DNA of 64,000 bases, taken from the NCBI GenBank assembly GCA_951406725.2, contig OX597816.1, positions 131,688,001-131,752,000 of the forward strand, written 5' to 3'. The notes beneath the pieces are model-generated. The model saw only the letters and a program-made list of their open reading frames with translations. It made no database searches and was not told the origin of the DNA. This DNA comes from Octopus vulgaris (lineage: Eukaryota). How positions within the stretch are numbered: position 1 is the stretch's first letter; every line of letters starts with the position of its first letter. Below, one piece after another: positions 5,848-59,745 of the stretch. The position numbers and the translations under genes were made by a program.

Positions 5848-6097
5848 GGGTATGTTTATATATATGTATATACATATTTACATATATGTATACATACATA
5901 TGTATATTATAATGTATATATATATATATATATAAATATACTTCATATATATATATTATAATGTATATATATTTATATAATTTATATATATATATATATT
6001 ATTATAATGTATGTATATACATATATATAAACATACATATATATATATGTACATACACATACATATATGCAAACATACATACACACATAGATTCATA

Positions 6098-6950
6098 TGT
6101 TGTCTGATCAATAAGTATCCGGACTGTTGCCATAGCAACGAAGCTAAAGCACACAGAGTGAAGCTGCTCGGCAAAGATTAATCTTGAACTCTGTGGTGTC
6201 TTGCACGCTAAGTTTTAATGTTCTGGCTCACTTCCGTTGTTTACAGCAGTGCTTGGAGGGAAGCTGTGTAGTGTATGATTGTCACATTGACCATGACAAA
6301 GAAAGTTGAGCAGAGAGTCTTCATCAAATTTTGCCAATAGCTTGGCGATACCTGTTGAGAAGTCTATGCAAAGTTTTCAAAAAGTGTTCATCGTTATTGA
6401 CACAATCAAGATCTTGTGCAACTGGAAGCGGAGTGTCATTTTAGTCAGCTGAAAGCAGTTTTGGCATAAACTTGGCTGACACACATCTCATACCCAAATC
6501 TTCAATGGTAATTTACTGAACTGAACCATAACTGATCTGTATATCCTTTGATAACTCACAGATGGTGATTCGATGATTTCCCCTCACAGCTGCACATACA
6601 TCTGTGATGTTTTTCTCAGTTTTGCTGGTTGCAGGACTCACAGAATGTTCGTCAATATCGATATTTTTTGGGCCATCTTGGAAGCATCAGAACCATTTGT
6701 ACACTTGTGTGCAGCTCATACACTCCCATCCATGCACTTTCTGAGAAGTATCGCCATGACAATGCGATGATCACACACTGTATACCTTCTTTCCATGTAC
6801 TTCTGTAAACAGTGGAGGTGAGCTAGAATGTTAAAATTTGGTGCATATGCACAACAGAGTTCAAGGTCAATCTTTGCCAAGCAGTTTCACTCAGCATGCT
6901 TTAGCTTTGTTACTATAGCAACAGCCCAGATACTTTTTGATCAGATTTCA
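6098..6950. mobile_element. fold-back mariner derivative made of two 5' ends
   Basis: TA-flanked; ~200-bp diverged inverted arms; + strand MTKKVEQRVFIKFC; - strand QVYKWF..FQDG...RITICEL...LGMRCVSAKFMPKLL. Confidence 0.85.
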
Positions 6951-9035
6951 TATATGTATGTACATGCATATGTAGATTTGTTTATGTGCATGAAACAATT
7001 CTACCAGTTAAAAGCCAACATTGTATCAAAGAGTTACTCAGCCTCTTGTTAAAATATAGACTTAAATAATATGTATGAGACTGAAATGAAAACTGGGTGT
7101 CAATATCATGGACAAAAATCTTCTGGATAGTGCACCAGCATGGCCACAGTCTCTGTGACTAAAAATAGTAAAAAAAAAAACAGAAAGCAGTAAAAAGCAA
7201 AAGATTGTGTAAAGAAGAAGAACATGAGTATCAACTTATTTTTGTTAATACCACTGTAAAAAACCCCGATCGACTTTGAAGCTTGTTGCTATGACATCCA
7301 TCTTTCATTTCTAGTCACATTTGAGATAGCATCATGAATATAAGCTGTTGTGCTTAGTCAGTTGCACTCATTTGATGAAGTATATAGATTATGCGTTATT
7401 GGTTACCAAGTGCATTTGATCAAACTTCACACACCCTCCTATCTAAAAGCAACATTCAATACTGCCCTGGTCGGTCTCGCTCTGAGCATAAATTCTGATT
7501 ATGAATAATAAATGTTATTGATATTTTACTTAGTGATGACTAATAGTAATTTGTCTTGATTAACTTTACAATTAACAGTAAAAGCCATATTTTTGTTGCT
7601 GGCTTTGCTGAAATTTCTTTTTCATCTTTTTAATACTGCATGCTAAACAATATGTATAAAAAACAACAACAACAACAACAACAACAAAAACGAGCAAAAA
7701 TCTCCACAAAACAACTAGTTAAACTATTTGACCACTATTTAAAATGATATCACTGATTATCAAACTTTAGTTCACATGCATACACAATTACAAGCTAAAA
7801 TTCAAACACGCATACTCATACATACTCATACATAATCATACAAACATTGTAATATAAATTCTCTCTTTCTCTTATATATTTAGATAGGCAGGATATGTAA
7901 ATGGTTTAGGGAATGGAATATGTATTCAGCTATTATCAGTATTGTTACAGTCAATGACGTCTGTAAAGGAAACTCTTTAATATATAATGTATAATAACAT
8001 TGAGCTATTCTTGTTTATCATAATTTTTATTTTAATATATTTCCTTTTCTTTACTATAATAAAAGAGGGTATGTATGTTTTTTGTGAGTCTTTATGTCTG
8101 TGTGTTCATATATCTATGCATACATGCGTGTTCTTACAAATATTCAGCTTCTATGTTTGTCTGTCTGTCTGTATGTCTGTCTCGGTCTGTCTATATCTCT
8201 CTCTCTCTCACTGATTTAAGACTGTTTGGAGTGAAATTACATTAGATATCTTAAACATACCCTGATGAATAGGCAGAAACCATATGGAGTGTTCTGCTTA
8301 CTATAGAGACTGTTCTATTTATTACTTGGGAAGACAGAAAATTCAGCTTTCTGTTATATTTTAGTGAAGCATAAATCCACACAGACTGTGGTTAGTTTGG
8401 TAATGTCCTTACTAGCCTTGGTCTGGTCAGTTGATTTCATTTGGTGCAGATGGGAACATCTTAATAAGCTTTCTGTCCACAGTGAGAGGTAATTTAAAGG
8501 GTGAGAGCACAAAATATTTTATTTGAAATTCTGAAAAGAGTACTTGTTGAATCCAGATGTTTTACAATAAGACATTGTAAAACTGTAACAGGAAATTATA
8601 TATCTGAGAATGAGAGCAGAAAAACTTAATTTCCAGTAGACCAAATTTTAGTCATGAGATCAGTCTTTGGATTGTTGTTGTTTTGAGCAGTGTCTGTGTC
8701 ATGATATAAGTAGCAGTTGTGTATTTGTGCTGTTATGTCTCCTCCATTGAAGGATGATTTTGAAGTCTTTTCATGGCTTCAGTGCTTGTTTGATATGAGC
8801 TGTCTAGGTTATGTATGAATGACATTTGTATGTGCATCTAAAAATAGCTACAGAGGATGAAGTATGGTATTGTGAGCGAAGGAGCAAATGCTCTCAGAAG
8901 TGACAGACATTCATTTGGATGTACAGAATGAAGGTTATGAAAGGCATTAAGGGAACTTGGGTTAATTTAGAATTCATAGAACATGGGAAATGATGAAGGC
9001 AGTGCTTGTTTACAACTATTTCCATCACCTTTTAG

Positions 9036-19076: not shown

Positions 19077-19140
<64 letters not shown>

Positions 19141-19143
<3 letters not shown>

Positions 19144-19279
19144 AGTTGCAGCATGGAAGGTGTTTATAAGCCATTTAAAAACACACAAAAACCGTTAGAT
19201 TCACTTCAACATTTAAATTTAATTTGTCAAGGTATTTTTGTCGCTTTGAAATCGCAACCTCTTCAATGACAAAATTCCA
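19141..19279 (-). mobile_element. single arm of the Penelope-like family that forms the 22794-23060 palindrome
   Basis: cagttgcagcatggaaggtgtttataagccatttaa... aligns with 22794-22930; abuts (TA)n. Confidence 0.75.
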
Positions 19280-19283
19280 TATA

Positions 19284-19822
19284 CGAGGGTGAGTCAAAAA
19301 GTAATGCCATTTTGTTTAGGACAGATATAATTACCAACACAGGAACATATATCATACATCAAAATGAAGCTGGTCCCCTGTGGATCACATCCCTACTCCT
19401 CAACATAGTAATGGTTTCTCTCAATAGCAATGTTCCACCTTCGATTGAGAACATGTATCCCTGCCCCATAAAATTCTGTTCATTGTTCTATGAGCCACTT
19501 CTTCACTACAGTTTTCCCTTCCTCATCACTGGAATAATATTTGCCTCTCAAACCCTCTTTCATGGGGCCAAAGATGATAGTTTGAAGGTGAAAACTGTAG
19601 TGAAGAAATGGCTCAAATAACAGTCAACAGAATTTTACGGAGCAGGGATACATGCTCTCATTCGAAGGTGGAACATTGCTATTGAGAGAAATCGTGACTA
19701 TGTTGAGAAGTAGGGATGTGATCCACAGGGGACCAGCTTCATTTTGATGCATGATACATGTTCCCGTGTTGGTAATTATACCTGTCCTAAACAAAATGGC
19801 ATCACTTTTTGACCCACCCTTG
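19284..19822. mobile_element. fold-back mariner MITE made of two 3' ends
   Basis: TA TSD; ~240-bp inverted arms; each arm encodes VKTVVKKWL..STEFY.AGIHALIRRWNIAIERN.DYVEK*. Confidence 0.92.
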
Positions 19823-19940
19823 TATATATATATATATATATACACACTAATACATCTGTTTGTTGTCTACACCACCTGTCTTCGTCTTTTGTTGTTTTTT
19901 TTTGTGAATTCTCCATATATATATATATATATATATATAT

Positions 19941-20828
19941 TGATAAAACGGTAAGATAACAAAAGAAAGAAAGAGACCTCAATATTATGTAAATAGAGGA
20001 AATTTATCTATACAATATGTTACATTACTCGGTAGTCAAGATAAAACTCTGAGTTTCAGATGCCGAAGTGGAAATCCACAACACCATCTCTTCGGTTATC
20101 TGGCTATTTGAAAACGTTATGAAAAAATACCGTTAAAAATGAAGGGAAATTACTCTGTTATAACTCTGCTTTGCCTGCGTACTTATACATCGCTCGCATT
20201 TTTCGTCATAAAAATTATATAAAATACATAAAAATATATAAAAATATATAAAAAATATATAAAATCTTCTTGGGACATAACACAGAAAGCATGTTCTATC
20301 CGTTTTCTTTAGGGGACCAAAAACGTAACAGAAATTTAGTCACATGTGGGCATGATCCGAAAAGCTCTGTCCTTGTATTTAGACATGTGGTAGGGTCTAA
20401 GCTGCTTTTCCAGATAAGCCATCTCTGGAAAAGCAGCTTAGACCCTACCACATGTCTAAATACAAGGACAGAGCTTTTCGGATCATGCCCACATGTGACT
20501 AAATTTCTGTTACGTTTTTGGTCCCCTAAAGAAAACGGATAGAACATGCTTTCTGTGTTATGTCCCAAGAAGATTTTATATATTTTTTATATATTTTTAT
20601 ATATTTTTATGTATTTTATATAATTTTTATGACGAAAAATGCGGGCGATGTATAAGTACGCAGGCAAAGCAGAGTTATAACAGAGTAATTTCCCTTCATT
20701 TTTAACGGTATTTTTTCATAACGTTTTCAAATAGCCAGATAACCGAAGAGATGGTGTTGTGGATTTCCACTTCGGCATCTGAAACTCAGAGTTTTATCTT
20801 GACTACCGAGTAATGTAACATATTGTAT

Positions 20829-20833
<5 letters not shown>
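19941..20833. mobile_element. 5'-truncated Penelope-like element with inverted duplication (410-bp-arm palindrome) in (TA)n
   Basis: Arms 20005-20414 and 20424-20833, 9-nt loop, one mismatch seen (T20194/G20644); each arm encodes CLNTRTELFGSCPHVTKFLL...*, resembling the LNxRxELxxxCxHxxKF C-terminus of PLE GIY-YIG proteins. Confidence 0.8.
20732..20805 (+). ncRNA. type I hammerhead-ribozyme-like motif (variant core); mirrored on - strand at 20033-20106
   Basis: Stem I AGAUAA/UUAUCU, CCGAAGA, stem II GAUG..CAUC, U, GAAAC, near-palindromic stem III AAACUC-A-GAGUUU. Confidence 0.45.
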
Positions 20834-20873
<40 letters not shown>

Positions 20874-22020: not shown

Positions 22021-22036
22021 ATATATACATTGCATT

Positions 22037-22333
22037 AAGGATCGTGGGTAAGGCCAGAACAATGTGAAATAAATGCAAGGCAAAGCACAAGAAAACAAAT
22101 ATATGAATTAATGTAGACTTACCTTGCATTCAATATTTTGAGATTATAACCTTATTTTCCATAAATTAATGACTGTTGCTGCATGTCGGCAACATTCATT
22201 AATTTCTTGAAAATGGGATCATAACCCTGAAATATTGAATGCAATGTAAGTCTATATTAATTCATATATTTGTTTTTTTGTGATTTTCCTTGCATTTATT
22301 TTGCATTGTTCTGGCCTTACCCACAATTCTTTA
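22037..22333. repeat. diverged long palindrome (~145-bp arms), probably an older PLE fold-back
   Basis: gtgggtaaggccagaacaatg...caaatatatgaattaat...gttgc-loop-gcaac...attaattcatatatttg...cattgttctggccttacccac. Confidence 0.85.
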
Positions 22334-22399
22334 TATAATATAGTTTACACAGTGCTTAATGGTAATTACTCTATTATAATATAAATGTGTATATATATT

Positions 22400-22752: not shown

Positions 22753-22790
22753 ATCATGTGTGTGTATATGTATATATATATATATATATA

Positions 22791-23119
22791 AACCAATTGC
22801 AGCGTGGAAGGTGTTTATAAGCCATTTAAGAAACACACAAAAGCCGTTCGATTCACTCCAACATTTAAGTTTAATTTGTCAAAATATTTTCGTCGCTAAA
22901 ATCCGCGACCTGTTCACTGACAAAGTCCGTGCTGCAGTGAACAGGTCGCGGATTTTAGCGACGAAAATATTTTGACAAATTAAACTTAAATGTTGGAGTG
23001 AATCGAACGGCTTTTGTGTGTTTCTTAAATGGCTTATAAACACCTTCCATGCTGCAATTGTTTTCGTTTCAGCACACGATCTCAGATCAAATTACTTGCT
23101 ATGCGAGTACATCTCCGTA

Positions 23120-23120
<1 letters not shown>
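22791..23120. mobile_element. Penelope-like fold-back insertion (126-bp arms plus 60-bp extension) between (TA)n tracts
   Basis: Arms 22794-22919 and 22935-23060, 15-nt loop, one mismatch seen; hammerhead-like gtcgc..gcgac-gaaa-atatttt. Confidence 0.75.
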
Positions 23121-23157
<37 letters not shown>

Positions 23158-24012
23158 GTATGTATATATATAGTATGTTGGGCAGAGTTTTCTATGATCA
23201 GAAGCCCTTTCTGTTACAAATCCCCACATGTTTCCATGACAAAAATAGAGTCAATCCACACTAAACAATTGAGAAAAGAGTAATGTTGACTTAGTTTTCT
23301 CTGTTGCTCTCTGTCTGTGTGTGTCTGTATGTACAAGATGATATTGACTATAATGACCCATCTAACCCATGCCAGCATGAATAAAAGGAATGAGAAATGC
23401 TAGTGATGGTAGTAGTGGCAGTTAGGAGGAGGAGGAAGCAGAACAGAGGAGGGGTAGAAGAGGGAGACAGAAGGAGGAATAATGTGGATGAGGAGTAGGA
23501 GGAGAAGGATTGTGTGTGTAAACTAACTTAACAGAAATATATATGGACGCATATACAGTGAACCCTACTGAAAACATACCCCATTAAGCTGGATATTGGA
23601 TAAACTAGATGAAATATGAGTTAGGAGTGACTGTCAATGTTTATTTCTGCTTACATATGTGAATTGCAGTCTTGTAGAGACATATGTATTCTAGATGTGC
23701 TATTTGAGCATGGCACACCCACCAAAGATGGTTAATTCATCAGAAATATTCAGGTCACATACTAATATAATCACAGATCATAACGAGAGACTAATTTCTT
23801 CCCCACTGTTATGAAATAGTGCAGCAGTTATTCTGATGTTGTGCTGCACGTCCCACAGGCAATTGTATCAAGATATGTAAGGGGAAAATAGCAGAACAAT
23901 GGATGAGTGACAAAAGCCAAACACTGAAGGTGAGCAAATATTTCACCAGAGGACACCCTACTTATTTAATTTTATGCCCCCATCACTGATTTGTCTTTCA
24001 TTCTCATCTGTT

Positions 24013-56725: not shown

Positions 56726-57130
56726 ATTTATTTCTTTATTGACCACAGGGGTCTAAACATAGAGGGAACAAGCAAGGACATACAAAGGGATTAAGTTGAT
56801 TACATCGACTCCAGTGCGTAACTGGTACTTATTTAATCAACCCTGAAAGGATGAAGAGCAGAGTTGCCCTTGGTGGAATTTGAACTCAGAATATAATGGC
56901 AGACGAAATACCTATTTCTTTACTACCCACAGAGAGGACAAACAAGGACAGACAAATGGATTAAGTCGAGTTTATCGACTCCAGTGCGTAACTGGTACTT
57001 ATTTAATCGACCCTGAAAGGATGAAAGGCAAAGTTGACCTCGGCGGAATTTGAACTCAGAATGTAATGGCAGACAAAATACTGCTAAGCATTTCGCCCAG
57101 CATGCTAACGATTCTGCCAGCTTGCTGCCC
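56726..57130 (-). mobile_element. dimeric SINE family B with 16-bp TSD
   Basis: TSD taacccttcatcatat (56710-56725, 57131-57146); body duplicated ~56728-56912 / 56913-57082. Confidence 0.92.
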
Positions 57131-57305
57131 TAACCCTTCATCATATATTGACTATAGAAAATAGTCTAATATTAGGGCATATAAACCACCATAATGATAA
57201 AGAAATGGACATGTATGCCTATTTTTTTCCTTTACAGGTTTTATATACCCAAATATTAGACTAATTTTTATAGTCAATATATAGTGAAGGTTTGTAATTC
57301 TATTT
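57131..57305. repeat. diverged palindrome (left tip at 56701-56725, displaced by the SINE)
   Basis: ccttca..atatattgactata.aaaatagtctaatatt.ggg..tataaacc / ggtttt.atatacccaaatattagactaattttt.atagtcaatatat..tgaagg. Confidence 0.8.
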
Positions 57306-57654
57306 ACGATGTGTGTGTGTGTGTGTGTGCATGTGCATATATATATATATCAGACAAGGCATAAATAAAGGTCATCACATATTTCTTTATTGCAGTAAAT
57401 TTGACTTACAGCTGACTCCAGTAGTCAATATATGTTTGTTATTGATAAGTTTACTCAATCAGCCAATTGACAGATTGAGGAAAATTGAATGATCTAGAAA
57501 ATTAATGCTACTTTTATCTCAGAGTCATTTCATTTGGATCTTGCCACAAGGAAACACATTCTTTATTAATCTAAACAATATTGCTAGCCAGGTAAACTAA
57601 CAGAGTGCTTATAAAGTATTTTGCCTGGATTGACAATCCTTCTCTAATAACATT

Positions 57655-57868
57655 GTTATGAGCTGGCAGAGTTGTTAGCACACTGGGTGAAATGCTTAGT
57701 GGTATTTCTCCCGTTGCTACGTTCTGAGTTCAAACTCCACTGGGGTTGACTTTGCCTTTTATCCTTTCGGGGTCGATAAATTAAGTACCAGTTGAGTACT
57801 AGGGTCGATGTAATCGACTAGTCACCCTCCCCCAAATTTCAGGTCTTATGCCTATAGTAGAAAGGATA
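57655..57868 (+). mobile_element. full SINE family B
   Basis: gagctggcaga.ttgttagc...ctgagttcaaa (B-box-like)...ctttgcctttt.atcctttcggggtcgataaattaagtaccagtt...gcctatagtagaaagg. Confidence 0.9.
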
Positions 57869-58830: not shown

Positions 58831-59745
58831 TTATAATAACTATATTTATATATAAATATATATGTTCCATTTAAAGCCACTAAACCTAAACAGTTGTTTA
58901 TAAAAAACTGAGTCAATTTTAATGAATAGATAATTTTAGTCAAGAAAATATATTTATAAATTTTTAAACAAACCTGAAGGTTGGAAATTACAGAGAAGAG
59001 CGACACAATATATTTATACAATGTATTTATTTACACATATAAATAAAAAGATCTATGTGTGTCGCTCTCCTCCGTAATGTTCAATTCCCAGTGGTTGGGC
59101 CCATCTTTTTTCTGTCAATTGTTTAGTTTTAGTCACTTTAAATAGGGCATATATTATAAATAATATATAATTATAGTTACCATTAAAAAGGACTTATGTG
59201 TGTAGCTCTTCTCTGTAATTTACAGCTTTCAGGTTTGTTTAGAAATTTAAAAAATATATATTCTTGACTAAAATTATCTATATATTAAAATTGGCTGAAA
59301 TTGATGGGCAAGCTATGTGGATGAAATGGGTGCATATGGAGCAATGGAAGCATTAACATCATGTTCAGTTCCCAGTGGTTAAGCCCATCTTTTTTCTGTC
59401 AGTTGTTTAGGTTTAGTTGCTTTAAACGAAGCATATAATGGCAATCAACATGATTGATTGCTAGCTACTAAAGCCTTCTTTTTTTATTCTCTCTCCGTTT
59501 ATTTTCTTGTGTTCCTTTCTGTTGAAGAGCGTAGGCTCAAAACGTAAAAGACTTTCTCACTTTCCCCGAGCATTAAACTAATGCACATGTTTGTTGCTTA
59601 CATGCCTGACTTTGTCTTTTGTTTTTTTTGGTACTATTCCAAACATATGTTATTATAAATAATATACAATTATAGTTATAATTTAAAAGGACCTATGTGT
59701 GTCACTCTTCTCATAATTTACAGCCTCAAGGTTTATTTATAAATA
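58830..59745. mobile_element. inverted plus tandem arrangement of one AT-rich repeat, PLE-like architecture
   Basis: 58835-59010 is inverted relative to 59105-59297; 59050-59180 recurs at 59360-59438 and 59645-59735. Confidence 0.6.
59438..59645 (+). mobile_element. PLE-like pLTR fragment with hammerhead-like motif
   Basis: ctgttga-a-gagc-gtag-gctc-aaaac-gta. Confidence 0.5.

Follow-up and report, generated by a model that had tools for sequence, protein, structure and literature searches.

What gave rise to a young, nearly perfect palindrome beside a hammerhead-like motif in the genome of Octopus vulgaris, and does this motif determine where the palindrome turns? The palindrome is located within a stretch of 64 kb, which was analysed as a whole and is referred to as the window. 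The best explanation, which we consider probable, is that it represents a dead-on-arrival, 5'-truncated insertion of a Penelope-like retroelement (PLE) in (TA)n, in which two cDNAs of uncut RNA were likely joined head-to-head via microhomology. The hairpin is most likely a real but ordinary, heavily shortened PLE stub.

Architecture of the hairpin and its family

The 330-base hairpin is formed by arms at 22791-22919 and 22935-23063, which pair over 129 bp except at 22793 and 22804, or over 126 bp with one mismatch when the start is set at 22794. An inverted-repeat search returned arms of 130 nt (98%) and a 15-nt loop. An earlier sequence-only reading had listed 126-bp arms, a 15-nt loop, one mismatch, a one-sided extension and (TA)n on both sides, and the coordinates agree with all of these (Table 1). 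The extension had been given as 60 bp; it is indeed one-sided, but its length is 56-57 nt and reaches about 60 only if counting starts at 23061. This tail is restricted to the right arm, and the left arm and the sister copy end at the same point. The whole hammerhead motif is present in the left arm only, as the right arm begins within stem I. The loop at 22920-22934 is not a neutral spacer but the element's own upstream sequence, as indicated by the match to the sister copy and by the loose ends of the family. No target-site duplication was readable in the (TA)n flanks of the hairpin.

Table 1. Features of the hairpin, its sister copy and the neighbouring fold-back, with positions in the window.
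Feature	Position	Strand	Basis
Left (TA)n target	22765..22790	.	sequence
Inverted, tail-less, 5'-truncated copy, including the 15-nt loop and 2-bp microhomology	22791..22936	-	arm alignment, loose ends
Complete type-I minimal hammerhead motif, G3-C8 core, predicted cut 22882/22881	22875..22924	-	sequence and fold
Loop: 5' strand of stem I and 10 nt of upstream element sequence	22920..22934	-	sister match, loose ends
CA microhomology common to both arms	22935..22936	.	family consensus, 4/4 runs
Direct 5'-truncated copy, starting within stem I, incomplete hammerhead	22935..23063	+	arm alignment
Tail on one side only: element sequence bounded by two inferred RT start sites	23064..23119/20	+	loose ends
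Right (TA)n target	23120..23172	.	sequence
Sister copy, single arm, tail-less, decayed core (U3-G8, A12, C16.1)	19140..19280	-	87-88% identity
Neighbouring fold-back, other family, same design	19941..20836	-	repeats and homology

The sister copy is the only other copy of the hairpin family within the 64-kb window, and no tandem array of the hairpin unit occurs there. As described before, its core reads UUGAAGA and its end lies close to that of the main copy, 7 nt upstream of stem I as compared with 12 nt for the left arm. Reading the hairpin as a MITE was rejected, since its terminal repeats are asymmetric, with the one-sided tail of 56-57 nt and a sister consisting of a single arm.

The family was further analysed by aligning one arm to four runs of Logan contigs, with a reference extending to 10 nt above stem I. 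In these runs, 12029, 7636, 6249 and 729 contig pieces matched the arm, and the hairpin family is dispersed and multi-copy. Tail letters recurred as loose ends before 22794 in all four runs, the sequence upstream of 22924 was recovered in loose ends of contigs, and in all four runs the family consensus continued with the letters 22935-22936. Both arms carry a minority base at 22858, where more than 90% of the contig depth has another letter, and this common rare base indicates that both arms point to one source. The drop in depth toward the 5' side of the motif was discarded as evidence for truncation, as edge effects and bases private to the reference explain it. Exact 18-mers hit 31 loci in metagenomes and 25 in prokaryotes; as none of these 56 matched beyond 25-27 nt, they were deemed chance. 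Scanning with a 26-mer yielded no loci in viral or prokaryote contigs, and a look-up by sequence returned nothing similar.

An assembly or library fold-back artefact is extremely improbable as the source of the palindrome, even though the junction of this hairpin (22934/22919) was missing among the joints listed from the four runs. There are two differences between the arms, the mirror symmetry breaks off exactly at the tail-less end of the family without reaching the flanks, and one side runs on into the tail of the element. In addition, other inverted joints of the hairpin family are contained in the contigs.

Further inverted repeats were observed in the window. At 19279-19827, a MITE-like element with inverted arms of 238 bp (92%) is inserted at a TA adjoining the sister copy; its ends are presumably Mariner-like. 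An older palindrome at 22026-22342 (arms of 154 bp, 84% complementary, 9-nt loop) shows no obvious tail and no hammerhead match and is probably a MITE, and the arms of the inverted-repeat elements at 6058-6992, 56964-57819, 58911-59296 and 57132-57293 are 76-89% identical. Between two TA runs, 72 nt at 19846-19917, with a single 14-mer match elsewhere in the window, possibly represent a retroelement 3' stub.

Proposed assignment to the PLEs

The arrangement of the hairpin corresponds to the standard PLE insertion, in which an inverted, 5'-truncated copy is described as combined with a tail on one side (PMC8557442; PMC3846280; PMC8969392). As in the canonical EN+ PLE unit depicted in two of these sources (PMC3846280; PMC8557442), the copies lie head-to-head, the tail is one-sided and the hammerhead is located near the 3' end; the tails of canonical units are given as usually 30-40 nt, whereas that of the hairpin measures 56-57 nt, with no ORF left. 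The (TA)n target is shared with Neptune, Naiad and Hydra according to the same two sources, and both insertions of the window, 22791-23120 and 19941-20836, occur in TA runs. Pairs of PLE hammerheads on opposite strands, 100-700 bp apart, were reported in 2014 (PMC4209133). For a purified PLE protein, nicking and extension of both strands have been described, with initiation at two internal sites that flank the tail (PMC11167929). This protein, from PAc, a Poseidon of the green anole, likewise gives two tail-bounding 3' ends and extension of both strands from an uncut template, as proposed here for the hairpin. The same source places the start of the PAc ORF in the hammerhead, while no ORF link was found for the hairpin and the neighbouring motif lies in the 3' UTR.

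The adjacent fold-back had been noted as sharing this asymmetric design in unrelated sequence, and it does so as a member of another family, with arms of 413 bp, a loop of 9 nt and a tail of 61 nt on the left. Its frame at 20427-20305 (minus strand) encodes about 40 C-terminal codons, followed by about 200 nt of 3' UTR; a hammerhead-like core, CCGAAGA (U4C), is found after the stop, at 20095. The peptide is identical to P0007 at 19 of 40 residues (48% over 40 aa), and the best PLE-type match by phmmer had an E of 8-9e-4, while five of the seven phmmer matches were to repeat-rich unrelated proteins and were discarded. P0011-P0016, longer relatives of P0007 that combine RT, Cys-linker and GIY-YIG-type parts, possess an RT-type YRDD, a cysteine linker and a VxY/YIG-type nuclease core, and they also carry the C-terminal motif of the neighbour, which we take to be Neptune-type. 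RVT_1 was matched weakly, below the cut-off, in one of the four relatives tested. From the cysteine linker in these relatives and from this C-terminal motif, we would call the neighbour's protein C-terminus Neptune-type PLE. A word-based protein search with the neighbour peptide gave no match, an Atlas search gave scores below 0.8 only, and a PDB search returned nothing significant. As the neighbour still encodes a PLE C-terminus, the shared design is anchored to the PLEs in this genome.

For the hairpin family, no coding remnant was found in the stub. Two overlapping frames on the plus strand, 23029-23121 and 22994-23119, are both open through the tail, and one of them starts with ATG. The latter could represent an ORF start as in the pLTRs of Penelope and Poseidon. 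The search for homologues with one tail frame, the one other than the ATG frame, gave no match.

A predicted hammerhead with an exchanged core pair

The minus-strand motif agrees with the sequence-only reading. Stem I comprises 7 bp (22924-22918 with 22881-22875) and is followed by the core GUGAACA (22917-22911) and one extra base. Stem II of 5 bp (22909-22905 with 22896-22892) leads to GAAA at 22891-22888, the palindromic loop AUAU with a 1-bp helix III, and U16.1-U17; the cut triplet ends at 22882. The site was the only match in the 64-kb window to a hammerhead descriptor that was composed after the motif had been seen and leaves the identity of the 3-8 pair free; among 20000 shuffles of the 146-nt strand that kept its dinucleotides, this descriptor also matched 8. 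No hammerhead family was among the 86 Rfam matches up to E=10, which were mostly hairpin-driven miRNA matches.

The core departs from CUGANGA only at positions 3 and 8, where G3-C8 replaces C3-G8, and as these two positions pair with each other, the core represents a C3G/G8C swap. Engineered versions of this swap are described as having partly restored activity (PMC11167929; PMC8495972), and natural hammerheads with U3-A8 have been published (PMC4209133; PMC3088659). Natural G3-C8 was not found in a literature search that included a supplement; its coverage was incomplete, and such cases may be in print. One paper outside this search reportedly describes many PLE hammerhead variants. The G3-C8 motif may still cleave, probably with low efficiency and in dimeric form.

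Compared with the metazoan PLE hammerheads of PMC4209133, the motif similarly has an extra base after A9, a G10.1-C11.1 pair and a palindromic helix III, and the U-rich upstream and AU-rich downstream flanks as well as the occurrence as opposite-strand pairs are also seen at the hairpin. It differs from the hammerheads described there in the core pair (C3-G8 and U3-A8 there, G3-C8 here), in the 7-bp stem I and in the U at position 17. In addition, the base after A9 is G, whereas the published PLE hammerhead consensus has H.

In three DNA runs, a subfamily whose stem II loop differs showed the same G3-C8 core in its loose-end consensus, based on 67, 57 and 52 contigs with a median loose length of 12-14, of which only some reach the core. 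Other pairs occur at these positions, G3-U8 in a group of five contigs and U3-G8 in the sister copy. Within the range that could be assessed from contig pieces (22830-22899), no variant of at least 2% was listed at 22880-22890, and G12 and C11.1 varied by at most about 6%, while three downstream positions varied by 31-48%. Taking G3-C8 as the family majority from the variant-free stretch 22900-22934 was rejected, as the variant table is blind near the ends: the difference at 22804 was missed, and only 22830-22899 was listed.

Origin of the turn

Measured from the predicted cut site 22882/22881, the arms reach 55 and 38 nt further upstream; as both extend past this site, the template RNA was uncut. 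In the proposed course of events, two cDNAs would likely have started at the two internal start sites of the element, each primed on a different target strand, both would have been copied from uncut RNA, and they would likely have been joined head-to-head at their 3' ends through the 2-bp microhomology. The polarity of the loops bears on this proposal. In the hairpin the loop is part of the tail-less arm, but in the neighbour it is part of the tail-bearing arm, with which it is in frame (W-L, matching the homologue). Both polarities are explained by a symmetric mechanism, which allows either, and the opposite polarity of adjacent insertions is in keeping with the priming of two cDNAs, one on each target strand. 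Two-strand priming also agrees with the purified anole PLE, for which both strands are extended and hammerhead cleavage is dispensable. We therefore slightly favour twin priming as the probable route.

Alternatively, a single cDNA may have snapped back, its 3' CA annealing to its own TG with a 15-nt loop, and copied itself, the tail then being trimmed off one arm by the endonuclease. The plus strand of the hairpin has exactly the geometry that this requires, the rare base 22858 common to both arms fits equally well, and self-priming with resolution by a nuclease has already been proposed (PMC3846280; PMC8557442). However, the tail is missing from the arm that would have been made first, so that an extra trimming step is required, and the neighbour shows the opposite loop polarity. 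Snap-back thus appears possible but rather unlikely.

The sequence-only reading had placed the turn at the motif and suggested that the RNA structure may set the RT stop and the fold-back point; here this was considered for both the hammerhead fold and its cleavage. That a young retro-insertion turns beside the motif is supported; the turn, however, lies just upstream of it and away from the cut site, which is excluded as the turn point by the coordinates. Support for a role of the motif comes from 17 distinct contig joints that were listed (more exist), 9 of which are deletions. In all 8 of the others the long end lies at or above 22897, and the six long ends that can be resolved fall -3 to about +12 nt from the 5' edge of stem I, compared with +12 for the main copy and +7 for the sister. 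If ends were uniform, a rough estimate for these eight joints would be about 0.5 raised to the power of 8. In one of these joints, whose orientation is not printed, the short end falls at 22880, 1 nt off the cut site. The longer arm may thus often end at the 5' edge of the motif. This clustering is a weak and biased hint, as longer arms were hidden by a reference reaching just 10 nt above stem I, five joints lack a printed orientation, the joints come from an unstated detection rule and the sample is tiny.

Against control of the turn by the hammerhead, the passage of both arms beyond the cut site implies that RT crossed the entire fold; had the fold stalled it, the stop would be expected at the 3' foot. 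In the neighbour, the turn is found within the ORF, 329 nt upstream of the motif of that element. Short ends are scattered from 22919 to 22839, among them 22857 and 22839 for the two joints whose orientation is printed as opposite-strand. Finally, templates with mutant hammerheads are described as leaving the size of inserts in vitro unchanged (PMC11167929). We therefore consider it very doubtful that the RNA structure sets the RT stop. The edge-clustered ends more likely reflect the 5' end of the RNA than a stall: the longer cDNA would have ended at -55 as its template RNA began just upstream of the hammerhead. In the simplest view, the cDNAs reach the 5' terminus of a short RNA beginning just upstream of the motif and stop there. 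PLEs are described as having internal promoters (PMC2377424); in D. virilis, transcription is reported to start well upstream of the motif (46 nt and a 75-nt intron), and this position counts against an RNA beginning so close to it.

Such a short RNA would also suit a different view of the 145-200-nt unit, in which it is a complete, non-autonomous, retrozyme-like mini-element with a short, possibly circular RNA closed by a long-range helix. Besides the clustered 5' ends, the predicted helix is consistent with this: the 5'-most 11 nt, 22926-22936 on the minus strand, pair with 22798-22808, adjoining the tail-less 3' end, with pair probabilities of 0.8-1.0. The fold as a whole is just modestly better than shuffles (z = -1.82; 9 of 200 shuffles were as good). 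The joints from 22925 to 22798 and 22801 can be read as head-to-tail via a shared TGCA, and those from 22924 to 22805 (depth 1588 in run X4, as compared with about 37-60 for listed pieces) and to 22867 (depth 3227 in X4 and 431 in X1) point in the same direction; the orientation of these supporting joints, however, is not printed. Animal retrozymes are reported to derive from pLTRs (bioRxiv 10.64898/2026.07.22.740005). Like the hairpin, non-LTR retrozymes are described as short non-coding units with one type-I hammerhead and kinship to pLTRs (PMC7229834; bioRxiv 10.64898/2026.07.22.740005), but they are tandem, while the hairpin is inverted and tandem forms are merely hinted at by the contig joints. 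The lack of a tandem array in the window also speaks against the mini-element, and the loss of consensus upstream, after about 13 letters, is matched in the DNA runs on the tail side, where the element continues. It is, accordingly, improbable that the unit is complete. As an observation in its own right, the recurrence and high depth of the joints from 22924 to 22867 and 22805 suggest an amplified subfamily or a tandem hammerhead array elsewhere.

The reading preferred here, a truncated PLE insertion, follows an insertion pattern that is already known, and the hairpin provides material on inverted PLE junctions and the role of the hammerhead. The two young neighbours with opposite loop polarity bear on the choice between twin priming and snap-back. 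Beyond this pattern, the exchange in the core and a possible clustering of ends are modest additions. Rather speculatively, they might together describe a high-copy animal retroelement family built on a natural G3-C8 hammerhead, in which the first 11 bases of a short RNA would pair with the RT start, and this closed domain would fix the ends of the cDNAs, giving rise to fold-back stubs and retrozyme-like tandem circles; we give this picture little credence. If natural G3-C8 is the norm of the family and active, it would widen the hammerhead consensus, and standard descriptors would miss whole families.
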